A DNA stretch of 63,889 nucleotides, filler included, from an uncultured bacterium (lineage in GTDB: Bacteria > CAZSTA01), in assembly GCA_964609495.1 (NCBI GenBank). It is 10 parts of 10 records of this genome, joined end to end, with 100 filler letters (N's around TTAATTAATTAA, not from the genome) between each part and the next. Parts side by side here need not be neighbours in the genome. Positions count along the whole stretch, not along the records: positions 13,205 to 19,558 come from CAZSTA010000204.1; 9 more parts are not named here. One strand, written 5' to 3'. A program made the translations under genes and the position numbers. Positions 1 to 19,558 of this stretch are shown here, in pieces. The notes under the pieces were generated by a model. That model ran no database searches and was not told the DNA's origin. It saw only the letters and a list, made by a program, of their open reading frames with translations. How positions within the stretch are numbered: the first letter of the stretch is position 1; each line of letters starts with the position of its first letter.

Positions 1-939
1 TTCCTTCGTTCCGCTATAGACGGTCAAGCCATGATAAGGGGTGCAAAACTCCTCCTCGGGAGAGTAAGCGGTATTAAAGTAGTCCTCAGTGCCAGTGCCA
101 TAGATGGTTAGGGAATCATCTCCATCTATGAAGATCATATCATCTCCTTCCCCATACCAATCGTTCTTCTGCCTCTCGAAGCAATCGATGTTAAGGTTAC
201 AACCGACATAGTGACCTTTGCCCTCGGCCTCCAGGATTACATAGTTATCCTTTCCATCCAAATTGGGGGTCGTCCAGATTTTCATACCCGACTCAGTAAG
301 TCTCAACTCTGGCTCCAACTCAATTAATGGTCCGGGAAGATCATCTCCCCATCCCTTAGTGGGATTCTCCCTCCGCCATTGGGAATGGAATCTCCCAAAT
401 TCCCCTTCTAATTTATCATACTCCTCATAATCGACATAGAAGTACACCACCCCCTCAGTTTCACACTCACTTGTTAGCTCTATCCTTGCTCCCTCGGAGA
501 AAGGCATCGGGAAGAAGCAATTGAAAGCCATCCCATTGCGAGGACTCATAGAAAGCGGCAAGGAGGTGAAATTCTTCACTATCCCATGTCCGATCCCGAA
601 GAAATCACCTATAGGAACCTCTACGCTGGGATTCTCCTCGCCATCCCAATACATCCTCAACAACAGTTTTCGGACATAGAGGACGGGTTTTTTACCTCCA
701 AATACCTGCTCGAAAGATGCTTTCTCTCCAGGAGGAAGATCCTCTCTATAGAATCCAAGCGTCATCCAGATGTGCTTGATACATCCAGCTCCTTTAATAT
801 CGGCTAACACTTTCGTATCTCCCGGATTAAATTGCCACCTATCCATATTTCCTCCAGTCTTATCGTAACTGGATATCCTCTTCCTCCTATAATTCCTCAG
901 TAATGGTAGATCTGCAAGTGATCCTGTTCCGAGTTTCAT
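1..939 (-). CDS. DUF2961 / GH172-family glycoside hydrolase (3' end runs off the window; absent from the ORF track)
   Basis: Manual translation from ATG at 939 (RBS AAAGGAGGT upstream): MKLGTGSLADLPLLRNYRRKRISSYDKTGGNMD...GAGCIKHIWMT...LRMYWDGEENPSVEVPIGDFFG. These are typical DUF2961 motifs. Confidence 0.85.
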   Translation of the reverse strand, partial: MKLGTGSLADLPLLRNYRRKRISSYDKTGGNMDRWQFNPGDTKVLADIKGAGCIKHIWMTLGFYREDLPPGEKASFEQVFGGKKPVLYVRKLLLRMYWDGEENPSVEVPIGDFFGIGHGIVKNFTSLPLSMSPRNGMAFNCFFPMPFSEGARIELTSECETEGVVYFYVDYEEYDKLEGEFGRFHSQWRRENPTKGWGDDLPGPLIELEPELRLTESGMKIWTTPNLDGKDNYVILEAEGKGHYVGCNLNIDCFERQKNDWYGEGDDMIFIDGDDSLTIYGTGTEDYFNTAYSPEEEFCTPYHGLTVYSGTKE

Positions 940-1130
940 AAGATTTTATACCTCCTTTAAGATTTTGATTTATTAGCTAGCTCTAATCTTTTCAACTTGA
1001 GAAGAGCTAAACTCCCCCTATCAGCGACTCAACTTTTTTTATTTCTATCATAATCTATATCTTAGTTATAGCCATTATAATAAAGAATCATAGATATGTC
1101 AATAATATCAGAGGGAAAAAACTATTTCTC

Positions 1131-1160
1131 TTGACATAATACCTGACTCTATGCTATAAT
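1131..1160 (+). promoter_or_regulatory. sigma70-type promoter for tig-clpP-clpX
   Basis: TTGACA-18nt-TATAAT with extended -10 TG. Confidence 0.7.
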
Positions 1161-1320
1161 ACAATGGGGAATCTATAAGATATTAGATATTTATGAGGTA
1201 AGAGGGGCTGAGTTACTTCAAAATCGGGAAAAGTTCGTCGATAATTGAAAACTAGCTCCGGTACCAGGATAACGCGAGGAGCGATTCTAATAATAAATTT
1301 GTCTATATGGAGGACGATAA

Positions 1321-2682
1321 ATGTCAGTAACTGTAAAGAAGCTGGGAAATTGCCAAGTTGAGCTGGAGATAACCATTCCTGCCGAGGAGGTAGATAGCGA
1401 ATTTAAGAAGGTTTATAGAGATTATAGCGTCAAGGCAAAGGTCCCTGGCTTTAGACCAGGCAAGGTCCCTATAAGAGTGCTAAAGCGTCGCTTTGGCGAG
1501 GAGGTCTTTTCTCAAGAAGTGGCTAGTGAGCTTCTTCCCACGGCTTTTGAAGATGCTTTGAATGAGACAGATATAGAGCCATTCGGAGAGTACCCCGAAC
1601 AACTCGAGGTGCTTCAGATCGAGGAGGGTAAACCCCTTATAGCTAAGGCTACCTTATCTGTTATGCCTATTGTAGTTTTAGGTGAATATAAGGGAGTCAG
1701 GGTCGAACCAGAGGAAGAATCTCCAGTGAGTGAAAATGATATAGAGCAGGTCTTATATATGTATCGAAAAGCGAATGCTCGATACGAGGTGGTAACGAAA
1801 CGCCCAGTAGCAGTTGGAGATCGAGTTGTCATCGATTACAGCCTTATAGTGGATGATAGAGAACTCCCCCCGATCGAGGGCTATACCGTGGAGATCGGCT
1901 CTGGAAATTTCCTACCCGAGATCGAACATGCTCTCGTTGACGTCTCCTTAGGGGAGGAGAGGAAGATCTCGGTAAAGCTTCCTAAAAGCTATATTCAAGA
2001 GGAATTAGCTGGTAAGGAAGTCACCTTCAAGATCAAATTAAACGAGATCAAAGAAGCCTTCCTTCCCAGTTTAGATGACGAATTCGCGAAAGAAGTGGGA
2101 GATTTCGAGACTCTGGAGGATCTGCGAAAAGATACTAGAGATAGATTGGAAGAGCAAGCCAAACGGTCAGCAGATGGAAGATTAAAGAACAATATCTTGG
2201 ATAAGATAAAATCTCTCTCTTCCGTTGAGATTCCTAAAGCGATGATAGATCATATATTAGAGACTAAGGAAGAAAGAACTAAGAAGGAATTGGCTATGGG
2301 GGGTACAGATTTCGACGATTACTTAACCGACCAAGGAGAGAGCCTCAGCACTTGGAGGACGAAACAGAGGAAGATTATAGAGGAAGATGTCAAGAGAGAG
2401 TTTATCTTAGAGGCTATCGCTGATGCCGAGGGGATAGAGGTATCAAATGAGGAGCTCGAGGAGCAAGTCAATCTCATCGCCGCTCAGAGTGGTCAAAATC
2501 CGCTACGGCTCAAAAATAGGATGGCGGTGAGCGGAGAGTTAAAATCATTGCAACAAAGCATGAGATACGGGAAGGTTTTAGATTTCCTCAAGGAGAACGC
2601 GAAGATCGGAAGCTCTCTTATAATAACCCCTGATCAGGATTTGGTGAATCCTTCATCCGATTCTAATATAATCATACCTTAA
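1321..2682 (+). CDS. tig: trigger factor
   Basis: Ribosome-binding signature PGFRPGKVP, FKBP-like middle domain, lies upstream of clpP-clpX. Confidence 0.97.
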   Translation: MSVTVKKLGNCQVELEITIPAEEVDSEFKKVYRDYSVKAKVPGFRPGKVPIRVLKRRFGEEVFSQEVASELLPTAFEDALNETDIEPFGEYPEQLEVLQIEEGKPLIAKATLSVMPIVVLGEYKGVRVEPEEESPVSENDIEQVLYMYRKANARYEVVTKRPVAVGDRVVIDYSLIVDDRELPPIEGYTVEIGSGNFLPEIEHALVDVSLGEERKISVKLPKSYIQEELAGKEVTFKIKLNEIKEAFLPSLDDEFAKEVGDFETLEDLRKDTRDRLEEQAKRSADGRLKNNILDKIKSLSSVEIPKAMIDHILETKEERTKKELAMGGTDFDDYLTDQGESLSTWRTKQRKIIEEDVKREFILEAIADAEGIEVSNEELEEQVNLIAAQSGQNPLRLKNRMAVSGELKSLQQSMRYGKVLDFLKENAKIGSSLIITPDQDLVNPSSDSNIIIP

Positions 2683-13204: not shown

Positions 13205-13510
13205 GAGTAGCATTGGGATGTGGACTCCCTTAACAATAAGAATCCTCCCCTCTTCAAGAGCAAGCTCCCCTAATCCTAAAGCCTTAGCTTCATCTTGGAA
13301 ATCTTCCATTACTCTCTTAACACTAGTTCCCAGAGCGATGAAATCGGAGGGTTTAGCTTCGCTTAGAGCTCTCACTTCTATTATATCTCCCTCTTTAGCT
13401 TCGGCCTCAGGGACTACTAGTTCTCTCAGCTCTTCCTCTTGGGCTAGAGCTACTCCTACTATCAAACTCAGGCTAAGGATGAGAACTGCAATTAGCAATA
13501 ATTTCTTCAT
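13205..13510 (-). CDS. secreted protein, paralog of 13535-14206 (3' truncated by scaffold end)
   Basis: Same RBS (GAAAGGAGAAAGT-ATG), signal peptide ending ALA, near-identical VVPEAEAKEGDIIEVRALSEAKPSDFIALGTSxKRVMEDFQDEA. Confidence 0.85.
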
Positions 13511-13534
13511 ACTTTCTCCTTTCTTTATTTTTAC

Positions 13535-14206
13535 TTAAAAAAAACACCTAACTGAGCAGTAAGTGTTAGCAACAGTTCCACATGCAGCACATGCAAAGCA
13601 AGTGCCAATGCTGGGAGCAGCGATACATGCGGCACAATCACTAGCACACCAGGGACATGCATTGACGATACATTTTCCATAGCATTTCCAATACCCCGAC
13701 CCTCTCTGTATCTGCCCCTCAGCCATCTTAACCTTTCCAGTCTCCAAATCCATCTCATATTGTCCACCCTCGAGGGTAACCATCATCACAGCCTTTCCTG
13801 CTTTCTCAGTAATCTCGAGGATAATTCCCATAGCTTCTCGACCATAGGATAGCATATTCTCAGGAAGATAGCCGAAGAACTGGATCTTGTCCCCCTTCAC
13901 GGGAGCGAGGAGGATTGGACTATGGACTCCTTTGGCAACGATAATCTTCCCCTGCTCAAGATCAAGCTCCCCTACTCCGAAACTTGTAGCTTCATCTTGG
14001 AAATCTTCCATTACTCTCTTAGCACTAGTCCCCAGAGCGATGAAATCGGAGGGTTTAGCTTCGCTTAGAGCTCTCACTTCTATTATATCTCCCTCTTTAG
14101 CTTCGGCCTCAGGAACTACTTCTATCTCTCCCTCTTGGGCTAGAGCTACTCCTACTATCAAACTCAGACCGAGGGTGAGAACTGCAATTAGCAGTAATTT
14201 CTTCAT
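13535..14206 (-). CDS. secreted protein with C-terminal 11-Cys domain (halocin C8-like / bacteriocin-precursor-like architecture)
   Basis: Sec-type signal MKKLLLIAVL...VALA, acidic pro-region, C-terminus YWKCYGKCIVNACPWCASDCAACIAAPSIGTCFACAACGTVANTYCSVRCFF. The ORF is well supported; the function is inferred. Confidence 0.6.
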   Translation of the reverse strand: MKKLLLIAVLTLGLSLIVGVALAQEGEIEVVPEAEAKEGDIIEVRALSEAKPSDFIALGTSAKRVMEDFQDEATSFGVGELDLEQGKIIVAKGVHSPILLAPVKGDKIQFFGYLPENMLSYGREAMGIILEITEKAGKAVMMVTLEGGQYEMDLETGKVKMAEGQIQRGSGYWKCYGKCIVNACPWCASDCAACIAAPSIGTCFACAACGTVANTYCSVRCFF

Positions 14207-14280
14207 ACTTTCTCCTTTCTGTATCTTAGCTCAGCGGACTGAATCATCAGCAAATAGGATATAAATAAATTACCTTTTAC

Positions 14281-14308
14281 ATTATAACAAATTGTGAAAA
14301 AAAAGCAA
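14281..14308 (-). promoter_or_regulatory. putative promoter of the tandem secreted-protein genes
   Basis: TTGCTT-16nt-TATAAT with extended -10 TG on the minus strand. Confidence 0.5.
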
Positions 14309-14450
14309 GGATTTTTTAGCTTGTTGGAAAGAAATACCTTCAAGTTCGCTTTGTATCGCCCAGTTCAGTAATCCAAATTGTAAGGAGGTGAATCGCTGCT
14401 TTGCTGGCTATAAGCTAATCATAGACCTATCATTTTCAAGATAACTATTC

Positions 14451-15263
14451 TCAAAATTTCCAGCTCATAGCAAGCATCAATACTTCTCGGAGCTGCACCT
14501 TCTCCGAGGTCTTCTTATCATAACGAACATCAAGATCTAAATTGAGGACAAGATTCTTCGTTATTTCGGAAGCTAATTCACTCTCCCATTCGCCTACCAA
14601 AGGTCTTGCGAAGGAGATGAACACCTCCAAGTCAGAATCCAGCTTCAAGGTGGGACTGAGCTGTTTCCTGTATCTCAGATCGGCTTTTATCCCCCACTGG
14701 AAGTTAGTTGCAGGGGGATCATCAGAGAAAATCATAATTTCTCTGGCGAGAAGGCTCAGCCGAGCTCTTCTTAATCCAGGGGCTGAAATTAGCCTTCTGG
14801 AAGTTAATCCCGCTTGGAGGGTTGAATATAAGGGATTGGGGAATTCGGTGAACTGGGTTTCGATCAACAAAGTAGCTATAGGATCAAAATCTCCAGCAGC
14901 ATCGTATATATACTCGCCGTCAAACTCAATATCGTCATATATAATCTTATCAGTTAAATCCTCCAACTGAGACTTGCCGTAATTCATTTCAAGTTCGAAG
15001 ACCCAGGTGTCCTTATCCGTCTCTCTCTGTATTGTTCCATCGAGGTCTAAGACATAGGTAAGGACAGGTTTTTCAGTTTCAAACTTATCGGTCCATTGGC
15101 TATAGGAAGCATGATTTAAACCTGCCATAAAGGTCCACTCTTGATCCCAACCGCTATCATCCTCCTCATCTTCTCCCCAAGCTTGGGAGGGACTGAATAT
15201 TAGTAGAAGAGCTATTAATCCTAGAGGTAATATAATTCTCATAGTGAATCTCCTTTTAATCAT
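14451..15263 (-). CDS. outer-membrane beta-barrel protein (DUF3078/DUF481-like)
   Basis: Signal peptide (likely start MRIIL), alternating amphipathic beta-strands, C-terminal ...LAMSWKF. Confidence 0.65.
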   Translation of the reverse strand: MIKRRFTMRIILPLGLIALLLIFSPSQAWGEDEEDDSGWDQEWTFMAGLNHASYSQWTDKFETEKPVLTYVLDLDGTIQRETDKDTWVFELEMNYGKSQLEDLTDKIIYDDIEFDGEYIYDAAGDFDPIATLLIETQFTEFPNPLYSTLQAGLTSRRLISAPGLRRARLSLLAREIMIFSDDPPATNFQWGIKADLRYRKQLSPTLKLDSDLEVFISFARPLVGEWESELASEITKNLVLNLDLDVRYDKKTSEKVQLREVLMLAMSWKF

Positions 15264-15409
15264 AGCTTAAGAGCTCAAAACCTACTATCTTCCCGATTAA
15301 AGCCAACTTCTTCAAACTCCTTGCCTCATAAACCTCGTTAATAAATAAAAAGGAAGCAAGATAGTTACTAACTATACACAAGCTTCCAGCAGGAATTAAA
15401 GGTCAGGTA

Positions 15410-15495
15410 TGGTGCGAGGAGCGGGACTCGAACCCGCATGGCTATTAACCACTGGATCCTAAGTCCAGCGCGTCTGCCAATTCCGCCATCCTCGC
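15410..15495 (-). tRNA. tRNA-Leu(TAG) with encoded CCA
   Basis: GCGAGGA acceptor stem, D-arm TGGCGGAATTGGCAGACGC, anticodon arm CTGGA-CTTAGGA-TCCAG, long variable arm, GGTTCGAGTCC, TCCTCGC-ACCA. Confidence 0.97.
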
Positions 15496-15515
15496 TTATT
15501 AATTTTTTCTGATAT

Positions 15516-15544
15516 ATTATACTATACTTAGACCTAGAAGTCAA
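15516..15544 (-). promoter_or_regulatory. promoter of tRNA-Leu
   Basis: TTGACT-17nt-TATAAT ending ~20 nt upstream of the tRNA 5' end. Confidence 0.75.
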
Positions 15545-15589
15545 GGGGTATTTCAACTAAGCATTAGAATATCGTGTTAGCAGATTTGG

Positions 15590-15710
15590 ATTTGAATTTC
15601 CTTAAATCACCCTCCCCTCAAGGGGGAATAAAGAGAGCAATCTTATCTCAACGTTCCCTCTCCCCTTGTGGGAGAGGGATAGGGTGAGGGGGAATTCTAT
15701 TATAAATTCC
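15590..15710 (+). repeat. REP/MITE copy
   Basis: TAAATCACCCTCCCC...ATAAAGAGAGCAATCTTATCT...GTGGGAGAGGGATAGGGTGAGGGGGAATT, shared with 19660-19843. Confidence 0.8.
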
Positions 15711-15771
15711 CCTATCAGTTCAGCACAGCAGTTCCACCCTTCTGATCTTGAATAGAGAGATAAGAAGCGAA

Positions 15772-16245
15772 TTATTCACGATAACTAACCTTCAATATCT
15801 TATACCTCACCTCTCCTATCGGGATCTCTATAGTGACTATCTCTCCTTCCCTCTTTCCTAATAATCCACTGCCTATCGGAGAATTGCTAGTGATATAACC
15901 TTGGCTGATATCCATAAATTCTTGATCACCAACGATGGTATACTCAAACTCATCCATAGAACTCTCATCTTGGATAGTTACGGTGCTTCCAATACTCACC
16001 ACTCCCTCTTCAGCTTGTTCTATGATCACACAATTTTCGAGCTTTTGCCTTATCTCCCTTATCCAAGTTTCATTCAGAGCTTTTTCCTCTCTAGCCGCAT
16101 CCAAAGGGGAATTCTCAGCCACATCCTTATCACTAAGAGCCCGAGCGATATCCTGAGAGATCCTCCTGGATTTTCTCTCCAACTCCACAAGCTTTTCTTT
16201 AAGCTTCCCCTTTTCCTCCAAGGTAAGATATACCGGTTCCTCCAA
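15772..16245 (-). CDS. greA: transcription elongation factor GreA/GreB family
   Basis: YLTLE...L; DVAEN (acidic D/E tip retained); VSIGSTV; SNSPIGSGLLGKREGE. Confidence 0.88.
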   Translation of the reverse strand: MEEPVYLTLEEKGKLKEKLVELERKSRRISQDIARALSDKDVAENSPLDAAREEKALNETWIREIRQKLENCVIIEQAEEGVVSIGSTVTIQDESSMDEFEYTIVGDQEFMDISQGYITSNSPIGSGLLGKREGEIVTIEIPIGEVRYKILKVSYRE

Positions 16246-16325
16246 TTTAATCCCTCCATATTAACTAACTTGATGAACTATGCTCAAGAAGTCGTCTTCT
16301 CCACTTATGATCGCTTTCTGAATAA

Positions 16326-17555
16326 TTAATCTATCTCAATGGGATAATCTCGATATTCCTTCACCGTCTCGAACATCGCCACTATATTCTCCGGTGGGAC
16401 CTCCAACAGGATGTTATGCACCTGATTGAATACGAACCCTCCCCCAGGGGCGAATATCTTCAACCTTCTCTTAACATGCTCTCTGACTTCCTCGGGAGTT
16501 TCCATAAGAAGCACTTGTTGAGTATCACAACCTCCCCCCCAGAAGGTTATCTTATCCCCAAACTCGCTTTTTAATCTCTCAGGCTCCATATTAACCGCTG
16601 AAGTCTGCACAGGATTCAATATATCGACTCCAATATCGATCAGATCAGGGATAAGATCATAGACAGAACCACAGGAGTGGAGAAAGACGTAGATATCGGA
16701 ATTATCTTTGACATAATCATATATCTTCTTATGGCGAGGCTTAAACAATCCTCGATACATAGCAGGAGATATCTGAAGAGCTAACTGCGTTCCCAGGTCA
16801 TCACCCATCTGAATGATCTGAATATAGTCTCCCACAGCTTCCAAATATCTTCTCAGATTTTCGAGATGCATCTCCACCATTCTATCGAGCATATACTCTA
16901 TAAACTTTTGATCTGCCGCTAAGTCGAACATGAACTTCTCATATCCACATAAGAAGTGACCGCCTTCCAGCAAGTTACCCCCAAATCCGCCCATAATAGC
17001 TCGATCTGTGCTTCCATAAAGTTCCCTTGCGTTCTTACCCAGAAGTTCAAATTCATCCTCTCCCCACAACTGACTTTCCCAATTGAACTTTTTGAGATCA
17101 TCTATAGTGGTAGCAGAAGCTAAAGGGAAGTGAATCGCATCAAACCAATAGCCCCCAGCAGGCATCTTAGCCATAGGGGTACCATCCATATCACGTATAA
17201 TAGTGCTTCCATCCTCAGCGATGACTGGATCGAACTCGGAAGAGATCAGAGCGGGAGTTCTATCGCTTAAGGTGTAAGGTTTCCACTCCTCGTTACCCAA
17301 ATCAAAGGTGGCTTTCACCCTATCCAGAGGAACAACATCAACTTCAAATAGGTCCAAAATAGGCTCCTCCACAATAGCCAATTGTTGCATAATATCATAA
17401 ACCTTTATCTCTCCCTCCTCGATCCCCAGATACTTCTTCAGCTTGCTATAAGCAGGAGCCATAATTCCAGTGGATCTCATTCCCCCAAAGTCGATGGGAA
17501 CTTTATCCGGTTCCTCGTGCTTGATAGCCTTTAATACTCGCTCTCTCGAATTCAT
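16326..17555 (-). CDS. uroporphyrinogen decarboxylase-family protein (MtaA/CmuA-like corrinoid methyltransferase)
   Basis: MNSRERVLKAIKHEEPDKVP, GDDLGTQ, LHSCG, FWGGGCDTQ, GGGFVFNQVHNI. Confidence 0.88.
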   Translation of the reverse strand: MNSRERVLKAIKHEEPDKVPIDFGGMRSTGIMAPAYSKLKKYLGIEEGEIKVYDIMQQLAIVEEPILDLFEVDVVPLDRVKATFDLGNEEWKPYTLSDRTPALISSEFDPVIAEDGSTIIRDMDGTPMAKMPAGGYWFDAIHFPLASATTIDDLKKFNWESQLWGEDEFELLGKNARELYGSTDRAIMGGFGGNLLEGGHFLCGYEKFMFDLAADQKFIEYMLDRMVEMHLENLRRYLEAVGDYIQIIQMGDDLGTQLALQISPAMYRGLFKPRHKKIYDYVKDNSDIYVFLHSCGSVYDLIPDLIDIGVDILNPVQTSAVNMEPERLKSEFGDKITFWGGGCDTQQVLLMETPEEVREHVKRRLKIFAPGGGFVFNQVHNILLEVPPENIVAMFETVKEYRDYPIEID

Positions 17556-17602
17556 AACTTATTCCTCCTTCTGAATTTGGAAATTAGATCAATAACTACT
17601 GC

Positions 17603-18610
17603 TCAATTACGATACTCCCTCACCGCCTCTAGATGCTCACTATAGGTGCTAGAGAAGTGATGAGAGCCATCTCCCTTAGCTACAAAGTAGAGGTAATCCA
17701 CCTCAGCAGGCTCGAGAGCCGCCCTTATAGAATCGAGACCGGGATTGGATATGGGGTGAGGAGGTAAGCCATATCTAATATAGGTATTGAAAAGGGAATC
17801 AACTTGAAGATCATCATAAGTGAGCGGTCTGATGTTTTCCCTGATAGCATACCTAACCGTAGGACATGCTTGAAGCTTCATCCCCCGCTTTAAACGGTTG
17901 TGAAATACCGCTGATATCAGAGGACGTTCGTCCTTATTCTTAGCCTCCTTCTCTATTATCGAGGCTAAGGTGGTGATCTGAGATAGCGATAAATTGGTTT
18001 CGCTCTTCCGATATATGGGGATCACCTTTTCTTTAAACTCCTCGAACATAATCATCGCTATCTGCTCCTCAGATATCCTTCGGGAGAAATTATAGGTATC
18101 TGGATATAAATATCCCTCTAGGTTAGTCAAAGAAGCCAGCTTCTCTATTTTATAACTTCTATTCACCACCTGAAGAAACTTCTCTTTATCCACAAATCCC
18201 TTAGCGCTTAGAAGATCAGCGATCTGTTCACTTGTATATCCTTCAGGGATAGTCACTGGATGTAGAACTACTTCTCCTTTCACCAGCTTGTCCAAGATCT
18301 CTCCTGCGTTAAGATGAGGAGATAATCTATATTCACCAGCCTTAATTCTCCTATCATATCCGCCAAGTCTAGCTATTTGGCTGAACCAAAACTCACTTCT
18401 AATGAGATTATTTTCCTTCAACATAAGAGCGATCTCTTCAGTTCCACTTCCAGGAGTGATAATTACCGTCTTATAATCAGGTTTATCCGTTACTGGATTA
18501 AAAGCTTGCGAGGCTGATATAAGAGCTAGAAGAACGAGAATCACTATGATCTGAACTATCACTATAAAAGTGACGGAGATACTCCTAAATGCTTTTGAAG
18601 ACATCTTCAT
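17603..18610 (-). CDS. mltG: endolytic transglycosylase MltG
   Basis: N-terminal TM, VTIPEG, LEGYLYPDTY, LASIIEKEA, NTY...GLPPHPISNPG. Confidence 0.95.
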   Translation of the reverse strand: MKMSSKAFRSISVTFIVIVQIIVILVLLALISASQAFNPVTDKPDYKTVIITPGSGTEEIALMLKENNLIRSEFWFSQIARLGGYDRRIKAGEYRLSPHLNAGEILDKLVKGEVVLHPVTIPEGYTSEQIADLLSAKGFVDKEKFLQVVNRSYKIEKLASLTNLEGYLYPDTYNFSRRISEEQIAMIMFEEFKEKVIPIYRKSETNLSLSQITTLASIIEKEAKNKDERPLISAVFHNRLKRGMKLQACPTVRYAIRENIRPLTYDDLQVDSLFNTYIRYGLPPHPISNPGLDSIRAALEPAEVDYLYFVAKGDGSHHFSSTYSEHLEAVREYRN

Positions 18611-18693
18611 ATTAACTATCCCTAACTTGGGACTTCATCCCATAATCTCCAATTTCTATCTTCTGTCTGAAGGGCAGAGAGGTGCTAGCTATC

Positions 18694-19188
18694 TCACCTA
18701 AATTTTATATCCCAATCGTATGGTATCTGATCGGTGTCATAAGGCAGGCGATATTCATCGGGTTCATCCCGACTGTAAACTCTGGTGGGGAAGTTTAACA
18801 ACAAGGATGGCACAACCCCTATAGTCTTATATCCATGCATTACTCCAATCGGTATTCTAAGCAAGATACTATTTTGCTCGCCTAAGAAGAACTCGTTCAC
18901 CTCACCCTTAGTGGGGGAATCCCCCCTAGCATCATAGAGAACTGCCTTGATCATACCTCTTACCACCACAAAAAAGTCGTTTTGTAACTTATGGTAATGC
19001 CAAGCCCTTATCACCCCTGGGTAATTAAGGGATACATAAACCTGTCCAAACCTCTCGAATATCTCATCATCCTCCCTCAGGATCTCCATTAACATTCCTC
19101 TTTCATCAGCATTCATCTTCAATTGTTTAATCCTGACTCCTTCTATAAGGGAGGAAGGATTTCCCCCTGTTCCTCTGTTTTTATTCAT
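18694..19188 (-). CDS. dTDP-4-dehydrorhamnose 3,5-epimerase family (RmlC-like cupin)
   Basis: DERG, GVIRAWHYH, YDARGDSPT, IPIGVMHGY. Confidence 0.85.
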   Translation of the reverse strand: MNKNRGTGGNPSSLIEGVRIKQLKMNADERGMLMEILREDDEIFERFGQVYVSLNYPGVIRAWHYHKLQNDFFVVVRGMIKAVLYDARGDSPTKGEVNEFFLGEQNSILLRIPIGVMHGYKTIGVVPSLLLNFPTRVYSRDEPDEYRLPYDTDQIPYDWDIKFR

Positions 19189-19199
19189 AATTCATCCCC

Positions 19200-19558
19200 T
19201 TATCTATCGGATAAAATATCAGAGACATAGACGAAACAGACACCTTTACCCTCCACCTCTGGGATCATCTCTTGGAGAGCCAAAAAGGTGTTAAATCTTA
19301 CATGACCTATTCCAATCGCCTCTCCATCCTTCAAGGCGATCTCAATCAAAAGACGAATGCGTCCTTTTATATACTCGATATCGCTCTGATTATCCAAGTT
19401 TACCCTATTTCTAGCCGAGGGAATCCCCATCTCCCTCGCTACTGTCAAAGCTACTGATTTTTTAGACGTCCTGCTATCTATAAAATATAGGTTCCTGGCT
19501 TTGATCTCGCTCAGCACGGCTCGCATAGTTCTCTCATCCTCAGTAGCTTTAGAGCCCA
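19200..19558 (-). CDS. divergent polysaccharide deacetylase family protein, C-terminal part (5' lost at scaffold end)
   Basis: GSKATEDERTMRAVL...LYFIDSRTS...LDN...AIGIGH. Confidence 0.85.

Follow-up and report, generated by a model that had tools for sequence, protein, structure and literature searches.

The window analyzed here, that is, the whole 63,889-nucleotide (nt) stretch of DNA studied, is a chain of contigs from the metagenome-assembled genome of an uncultured bacterium (assembly GCA_964609495.1, G000 in the following, 99.45% complete), in which consecutive contigs are separated by runs of N and a TTAATTAATTAA linker. At the start of one of these contigs (C204, window positions 13205-19558) lie two tandem genes, named copy 1 and copy 2, for putative exported precursors, and copy 1, the only complete one, ends in a short cysteine-rich module (Table 1).

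As the original prediction had stated from the sequence, the two genes are head-to-tail paralogs (81 of 101 residues identical by BLASTP, E 3e-54) with a shared signal peptide and the same ribosome-binding site, as the AAAGGAGAAAGT string precedes each start codon. The nearly identical block of about 45 amino acids (aa) that it described corresponds to residues 31-75, which differ at one position, and the divergence between the copies sets in after the EDFQDEA motif. Also as described, residues 1-174 of copy 1 are devoid of Cys and 11 Cys, two CAAC motifs included, follow in residues 175-221 after a QRGSG linker, and neither a modifying enzyme nor a dedicated exporter was found on C204. The copy 1 signal peptide lacks a twin arginine, and its match to the Pfam model LPAM_1 is weak (E 0.39). 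The claim that both genes share one promoter is plausible in that the TATAAT of the TGTTATAAT box is kept in a related locus (L008, see below), but the sigma-70 scan listed no site, omitting this box because its -35 element is weak.

Table 1. Features of the tandem precursor locus, in window coordinates.
Feature	Position	Strand	Description
Copy 1 (P0001)	13535-14206	-	Complete gene, 223 aa
Copy 2	13206-13510	-	First 101 codons; 3' part lost at the C204 contig start
Signal peptide of copy 1, residues 1-23	14138-14206	-	Predicted Sec-type: MKK, hydrophobic core, cleavage between ALA and Q; read from the sequence
N-domain and Gly-rich linker, residues 24-171	13694-14137	-	Cys-free, acidic
Cys-ladder helix-loop-helix module, residues 172-223	13538-13693	-	11 Cys; predicted from the sequence and an AlphaFold2 (AF2) model
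Spacer between copy 1 and copy 2	13511-13534	-	24 nt; GGAG at 13516-13519; too short for a promoter or terminator
GGAG ribosome-binding site of copy 1	14212-14215	-	AAAGGAGAAAGT string, the same ahead of both copies
Extended -10-like box TGTTATAAT	14281-14289	-	About 65 nt upstream of the copy 1 ribosome-binding site; candidate array promoter
Upstream arm of the inverted repeat	14229-14238		10 nt, TCCGCTGAGC in the gene direction; between the -10 box and the ribosome-binding site

The original prediction also anticipated more copies. A six-frame search of G000 added one piece of the family to the two on C204, giving three in all; the additional piece lies at the end of contig C312, where the gene is cut at its 5' end, continues the orientation of C204 and encodes a tail with 10 Cys. 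Furthermore, a metagenome scan revealed the locus L008 from a close relative, in which GreA and a DUF3078 outer-membrane protein, both 93% identical at the aa level to the products of the window genes, are followed by a single family gene encoding P0003 (217 aa, 8 Cys), a homolog of copy 1 with 58-63% identity. No additional start is found in the 61 nt that follow P0003, and these can be aligned with the 3' flank of the C312 copy, supporting that C312 is the downstream end of the C204 locus. This genome has, therefore, at least three genes where the relative has one, and the locus is an array of variable copy number.

Contigs assembled from reads (Logan contigs) were analyzed from 4 of the 13 sequencing runs that carry the locus, runs labelled as salt-marsh or marsh among which there is no RNA run. 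On a contig of run X1 the C312-type sequence is joined directly to the shared 5' block, with a loose end at 13289 that is identical to positions 1916-1945 of L002 (G000:C312), and a second loose end in the Logan contigs gives a further continuation. The proposed search for the C-terminus of copy 2 and for more paralogs was thus successful for the latter and not for the former: the tail of copy 2 is absent from the assembly, where just two modules were found with a module-only hidden Markov model and a Cys regular expression, and it was not recovered from the Logan contigs of the four runs because these contigs are short. In addition, Logan contigs from X1 and X3 join position 13385 to 14127, skipping 741 bases, and this joint, which may reflect either an allele with a single copy in the population or a collapse of the repeated 5' block during assembly, was not used for any conclusion.

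The array is bracketed by an inverted repeat, the second arm of which lies just after the stop codon of the C312 paralog (G000:C312, about 1968-1977), and both arms are present in L008, extended to 12 nt (about 1700 and 2397-2410). The 10-mer occurs seven times in G000 against 7.2 occurrences expected by chance, which argues that it is not a dispersed repeat, and two of the seven flank the locus. The repeat could be regulatory, or a site of recombination or inversion; no strand-switch joints were seen in the Logan contigs at the locus. A palindromic hairpin follows the inverted repeat. Downstream of the third paralog, positions 230-1327 (minus strand) of L002 encode a protein of 365 aa that has a hydrophobic helix at its N-terminus and contains eight TPR_12 repeats, of which several are nearly identical to one another.

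Beyond these genes the family is very rare. P0003 was the only relative found among 5.8 billion protein clusters, and a profile scan of 1.84 billion representatives detected P0003 and P0004, the latter through its tail only (E 4.3e-4); P0005 is in turn a relative of P0004, so the family so far numbers five proteins from three metagenomic lineages. P0004 and P0005 have a lipoprotein-like start and a different N-domain with Asp-rich loops (DxDxDG-like in P0004), and when the P0001 family was compared with them by hhalign only the module was aligned (probability 97.8%, E 7.9e-13). At the level of sequence, then, the module is homologous across two unrelated N-domains and appears to be portable. 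P0004 is encoded on a GC-rich contig (L009 845-1681, plus strand), between genes for a sigma-70-type factor and a MoeB/rhodanese-like protein as judged by eye, and its neighbours look like housekeeping genes.

Further searches extended this list no more. The A1 and A3 profiles yielded 187 and 305 pattern stretches, respectively, on genome contigs, none of them a relative, and no members on viral contigs; a search of genomes listed as relatives with the module alignment matched one of 401, the window's own; and no homolog was found in 8000 candidates among proteins of 411-2000 aa. A six-frame search with A1 matched 2 of 41 genomes listed as relatives, but the second match, of 16.5 bits and with an internal stop, was taken as chance. 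Pfam and NCBIfam gave no meaningful match for the five members at E<=10, a threshold to be read knowing that the HMMER filters drop most matches above about 0.1. The module is therefore undescribed in the libraries searched.

Across the members the module is 46-57 aa long and has 8-11 Cys. The five tails have in common eight invariant Cys, an invariant Tyr and an invariant Pro, and two further Cys close to the loop are present in four of them, being absent together in P0003 along with six residues of the loop. The spacing of the Cys is mirror-symmetric, with 4,8(13),4,3 on one side, 9 in the middle and 3,3,8,4 on the other in four tails, and 4,8,4, then 9, then 3,8,4 in P0003; copy 1 has one extra Cys within the first 8-residue gap. 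The tails of the paralogs thus differ from each other and contain Cys, and no match to a conserved metal-binding family was obtained, both in keeping with the original prediction.

The AF2 model of the module alone is a helix-loop-helix with helices at 7-33 and 37-59 and a mean predicted local distance difference test (pLDDT) score of 82.4 (78-82 in the five models). When the whole of copy 1 was modeled the pLDDT was 59.5, with an N-domain of the alpha/beta type at around 60-71. Helix 2 is hydrophobic and carries 0-1 acidic and 1-2 basic residues in all five members. Mirror spacing on an antiparallel hairpin fits what a ladder of cross-links requires, and in copy 1 the pairs would be C175-C221, C179-C217, C187-C209, C191-C206 and C194-C203, as predicted from this spacing, with C184 left over. 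The module has the design of the Cys-stabilised helical hairpins, with CX3C on each helix and a cross-hairpin placement of the Cys, which denotes a shared design and not descent.

No close structural homolog was detected. For the full model, Foldseek against the PDB gave no match at E<=0.001, and the best Z of VIA-align in its wide mode was 4.7, with no row at Z>=5 and BLIP-like, cystatin and PR10/SRPBCC folds among the tied rows. For the module model, Foldseek gave seven rows at E<=10 and none at E<=0.001, and VIA-align wide only generic helical hairpins (best Z 6.7). A sequence search of the PDB with the A4 profile had 0 matches at E<=10. The binding of an iron-sulfur cluster by the module was considered and rejected, because a Sec-type signal without twin arginine makes a folded cofactor protein unlikely.

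The ratios of nonsynonymous to synonymous substitution rates (dN/dS) were calculated by the Nei-Gojobori method for three sequence pairs, with 47-53 codons in the module. Values of 0.33-0.44 were obtained for the N-domain and of 0.74-1.15 for the module, increasing to 1.0-2.0 when only the non-Cys codons of the module were counted, and the flanking DUF3078 and GreA genes showed 0.11 and 0.13 between the window and L008. Fisher tests of module against N-domain gave p=0.044, 0.031 and 0.27 for the three pairs. The difference is real, with the module evolving about three times faster than the N-domain, although it is modest and falls short of proven positive selection. These data, together with the presence in L008 of a different module between the same flanks, support the prediction of a paralog array in which the module is the variable part.

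Synonymous divergence (dS) is not uniform along the genes. Between copy 1 and copy 2 it is 0.11-0.17 in the first 75 codons and 0.57 in codons 76-99; the low value of the former indicates a homogenisation of the 5' block, and such a homogenised block accounts for assemblies breaking here. Between P0003 and the C312 copy the dS of the module is 0.67, compared with 0.25-0.27 in the flanking genes, supporting that the modules predate the divergence of the two genomes.

The layout proposed in the original prediction, with a signal peptide followed by an N-domain free of Cys and, at the C-terminus, a hydrophobic module rich in Cys, was found in these proteins, as an architecture and not as a proof of homology. 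A similar organization exists in ProC8, which consists of an N-terminal immunity protein and a 76-aa C-terminal peptide according to the part of the source available (10.64898/2026.07.27.741052). The same part of that source describes a Sec signal in the Staphylococcus epidermidis C8 homolog, no conserved neighbours for the staphylococcal homologs, and bacterial homologs that also fail the HalI Pfam model and yet are structurally alike (10.64898/2026.07.27.741052). As in ProC8 and the Gram-positive C8-like proteins, one gene would here encode an export signal, a Cys-free N-region (about 150-200 aa) and, at the C-terminus, a short hydrophobic peptide rich in Cys, and as in the staphylococcal homologs, as far as that source covers them, there are no conserved accessory genes and the signal is of the Sec type, as in S. 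epidermidis. By contrast with ProC8, the host is a diderm with lipopolysaccharide (LPS) in which no Dsb enzymes were found, and not a haloarchaeon or a monoderm; the peptide is a two-helix ladder of 46-57 aa with its own Cys pattern; and the genes are arranged in tandem and share a 5' block that recombines.

A search of the ESM Atlas with the whole protein gave an archaeal cluster as top row (0.90), followed in rows 2 and 3 by clusters labelled "putative immunity protein/bacteriocin domain" (0.88 and 0.87, with 183 and 176 of 256 shared features), 17% and 94% of whose members are annotated with PF27906 (Gpos_C8-like). According to the calibration of the search, this likeness to C8-type precursors is a fair lead and not a test.

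Two other known systems share part of this organization. Plant vicilin-buried peptides are excised from their precursors. They sit within larger seed storage vicilin precursors and, like the alpha-hairpinins and the module studied here, are helix-loop-helix peptides held by CX3C Cys pairs, as described in the available parts of the sources (PMC7191063, PMC11591084, 10.1101/2020.05.26.118075). The plant peptides have four Cys and two rungs, whereas the module has 8-10 conserved Cys for four or five putative rungs on helices of about 25 residues, and there is no sequence relationship between them, so the analogy is one of design only. On the other hand, polymorphic toxin loci of the contact-dependent inhibition (CDI)/Rhs type combine a conserved N-terminal part with replaceable C-terminal "warheads". 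The present locus resembles them in its recombining conserved 5' region, in its divergent C-terminal cassettes between conserved flanks and in a copy number that varies between close relatives, and differs from them in that none of the copies is followed by a separate immunity gene (the spacing between them being of 24 nt), in that the variable part is a small Cys-framework peptide and not an enzyme domain, and in that there is no dedicated secretion system.

In the explanation that we tentatively favour, without granting it an even chance, the locus is a polymorphic array of exported precursors, the Cys-ladder hairpin tails of which are bacteriocin-like peptides, with the N-domain as a pro-domain or as a means of self-protection. 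Each gene would produce a Sec-exported precursor with a cleavable signal peptide, an acidic N-domain of the alpha/beta type, about 145 aa long and free of Cys, a linker and the module. The linker, short and rich in Gly or Asp, would be the site of a second cleavage. The 8-10 conserved Cys, in mirror spacing on two helices, would allow the hairpin to be cross-linked like a ladder with four or five rungs, and recombination would keep the 5' third of the genes nearly identical between paralogs. The module is read as the active part because the 5' third is kept nearly identical while the module is the end that changes fast, and it might act as a membrane-active, bacteriocin-like peptide against competitors. 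By analogy with ProC8 (HalI plus halocin C8), the N-domain may be a pro-domain, a carrier or a self-protection domain. The cross-links and their disulfide nature, the cleavage of the linker, the passage through the outer membrane, the toxicity and the self-protection are steps that we infer. A stronger version, which we regard as decidedly unlikely, is that of a new fold class of peptide weapon, combining a ladder hairpin, a shielding N-domain, cassette exchange and cross-links formed without Dsb enzymes in an anaerobic diderm; in that case the cross-links might form by self-oxidation after release.

A number of observations weigh against the favoured explanation, and those on the host envelope come first. 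The predicted diderm nature of the host was supported by two Omp85 proteins, LpxC and one secretin gene in G000, which identify it as an LPS diderm, and with Omp85 and LpxC present Sec export ends in the periplasm; this secretin gene was the only one seen. The secretion out of the cell implied by the original prediction is not supported, as a Sec signal in a diderm takes the protein to the periplasm only. Moreover, no immunity, protease or transporter gene was found beside any of the three locus types. Thiol chemistry is a second difficulty: G000 had no match for DsbA (DSBA), DsbB, VKOR or Thioredoxin_4, nor for haem-copper oxidase or cytochrome bd, and the host seems to be a strict anaerobe that lacks the known thiol oxidases of the envelope. 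An excess of even Cys counts is an accepted sign of disulfide formation in the envelope, according to the available part of the source (PMC2823432). Among 402 exported-like proteins, defined from a crude gene call and a rough signal-peptide heuristic that mis-set the cleavage site of copy 1 itself, Cys was absent from 88, even in number in 117 and odd in 197, compared with 829 even and 967 odd in 2032 cytoplasmic-like proteins. There is, therefore, no sign of routine disulfide formation in G000, and the description of the module as "disulfide-rich" is unproven, with neither a Dsb or VKOR match nor an even-Cys bias behind it.

The proteins themselves add to these objections. The number of Cys in copy 1 is odd (11), the net charge of the module goes from about +2 to about -5 in a hand count, unlike that of classic cationic peptides, the AF2 alignments had only five rows, and the ESM Atlas search with the module alone gave nothing usable (0.78). 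A dN/dS near 1, from 47-53 codons and three compared sequences, also fits relaxed constraint. Finally, membership in the halocin C8 family, as originally proposed, was not supported, as TIGR04449 and PF22862 had no match at E<=10 in the five members. TIGR04449 (cut-off 24 bits) failed at this threshold with P0001, P0002 and the 52-aa module alike and matched 0 of 401 genomes, and both models detected nothing in the genome (searched in six frames with TIGR04449), while the Haloferax volcanii control was matched (over the cut-off in the case of TIGR04449). By the tests made, then, the system is no member of the halocin C8 family, and it is at the level of analogy that it would work like ProC8.

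There is a different explanation, fairly unlikely in our opinion, in which the tail is a periplasmic metal-thiolate module where the Cys of the facing helices bind soft metals (Cu(I), Zn, Cd, Ni), perhaps after dimerisation into a four-helix bundle, so that it would act like metallothioneins or Csp, with the N-domain as carrier or docking part. Csp copper-storage and DUF326 proteins are exported helical proteins with many Cys at steps of 3-4 residues along their helices. In the module too, as judged by the spacing and the AF2 model, each helix has its Cys along a single face at such steps, CxxCxxC and CxxxCxxC strings are present, and the variation in Cys number (8, 10 or 11) is one that metal clusters tolerate; an anaerobe-like host with no match to known disulfide-forming enzymes and no even-Cys bias is also what this explanation expects. 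The module has, however, two helices and not a four-helix bundle, follows a Sec and not a Tat-type signal, lacks His and Met, and its non-Cys positions are hypervariable. Neither the DUF326 Cys-repeat model of Pfam nor any other metal domain matched the five members at E<=10, and the rest of the module is apolar, with a nearly uncharged helix 2, and does not look soluble. A role in metal storage or buffering would leave the paralog array, the fast change at non-Cys positions and the replacement of cassettes unexplained, and the family is far too rare for general metal homeostasis.

Alternatively, the tail may be an envelope anchor or sorting signal, in which the last, apolar helix would remain in a membrane or be bound by a sorting enzyme and hold the N-domain at the cell surface, with the Cys stabilising the anchor. 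Helix 2 lies at the extreme C-terminus, behind a conserved [E/D/A]-P-[S/T] turn and with a K or R near the end in three of the five members, and in a diderm the envelope retains a Sec substrate that has no other pathway to follow; in four members the best 19-residue hydropathy exceeds the usual threshold of 1.6 (P0004 2.29, P0005 2.33, copy 1 1.76, C312 copy 1.79). Nevertheless, P0003 reaches only 1.30 with four consecutive Ala in a helix 2 that measures 19-23 residues, P0004 and P0005 already have a lipoprotein-type N-terminus, and helix 1 is conserved along with helix 2 in the mirror spacing. Nor is there a basic tail: no C-terminal basic cluster was seen, and the CTERM-type sorting-signal models of NCBIfam (PEP-CTERM, GlyGly-CTERM, MYXO-CTERM etc.) had no match at E<=10. 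A highly variable anchor for a conserved displayed domain would be the reverse of what is usual in surface proteins, and we hold this explanation to be decidedly unlikely. Very improbable is that the tail serves as the core peptide of a ribosomally made natural product, in which an enzyme from another locus would convert the Cys to thioethers or different cross-links. A Cys-dense short C-terminal core behind a larger recognition region is typical of such precursors, so the layout fits, as does the lack of a match to known disulfide machinery in G000, but none of the three locus types has an adjoining maturase, the precursors known for such products have neither Sec signal peptides nor folded domains of 145 aa, and the mirror spacing favours Cys-Cys pairing over links from Cys to the backbone.

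The remaining genes around the array on C204 encode the DUF3078 outer-membrane protein, a tRNA-Leu, GreA, a URO-D-like protein and YceG. The URO-D-like protein (409 aa, window 16326-17555, minus strand) matches URO-D only in its C-terminal half (residues 204-401), and it looks like a methyltransferase-type relative of URO-D rather than a haem enzyme. A 164-aa open reading frame at 18694-19188 (minus strand) presents an odd pairing, with models for a dTDP-sugar isomerase and for Polysacc_synt_C both matching one stretch. As for the host, G000 (window contigs C200-C216) is the sole genome of its phylum in a collection of 199,900 species, and among the relatives listed for it, in sets of 40 and 400, each row reads "same domain".

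Whatever the function of the module, a question is raised of how ten exported Cys within 50 residues are handled by a bacterium without recognisable DsbA, DsbB or VKOR. Should the metal-thiolate explanation be true, the module would be a new small metal-thiolate domain. If instead the tails are bacteriocin-like peptides, as we tentatively favour, they would constitute a new Cys-framework peptide family among bacteriocins, and the logic of halocin C8, in which one gene serves for both protection and peptide, would be extended to a diderm anaerobe. The module would then provide a compact, very stable-looking two-helix scaffold, held by as many as five cross-links and hypervariable at its surface positions.

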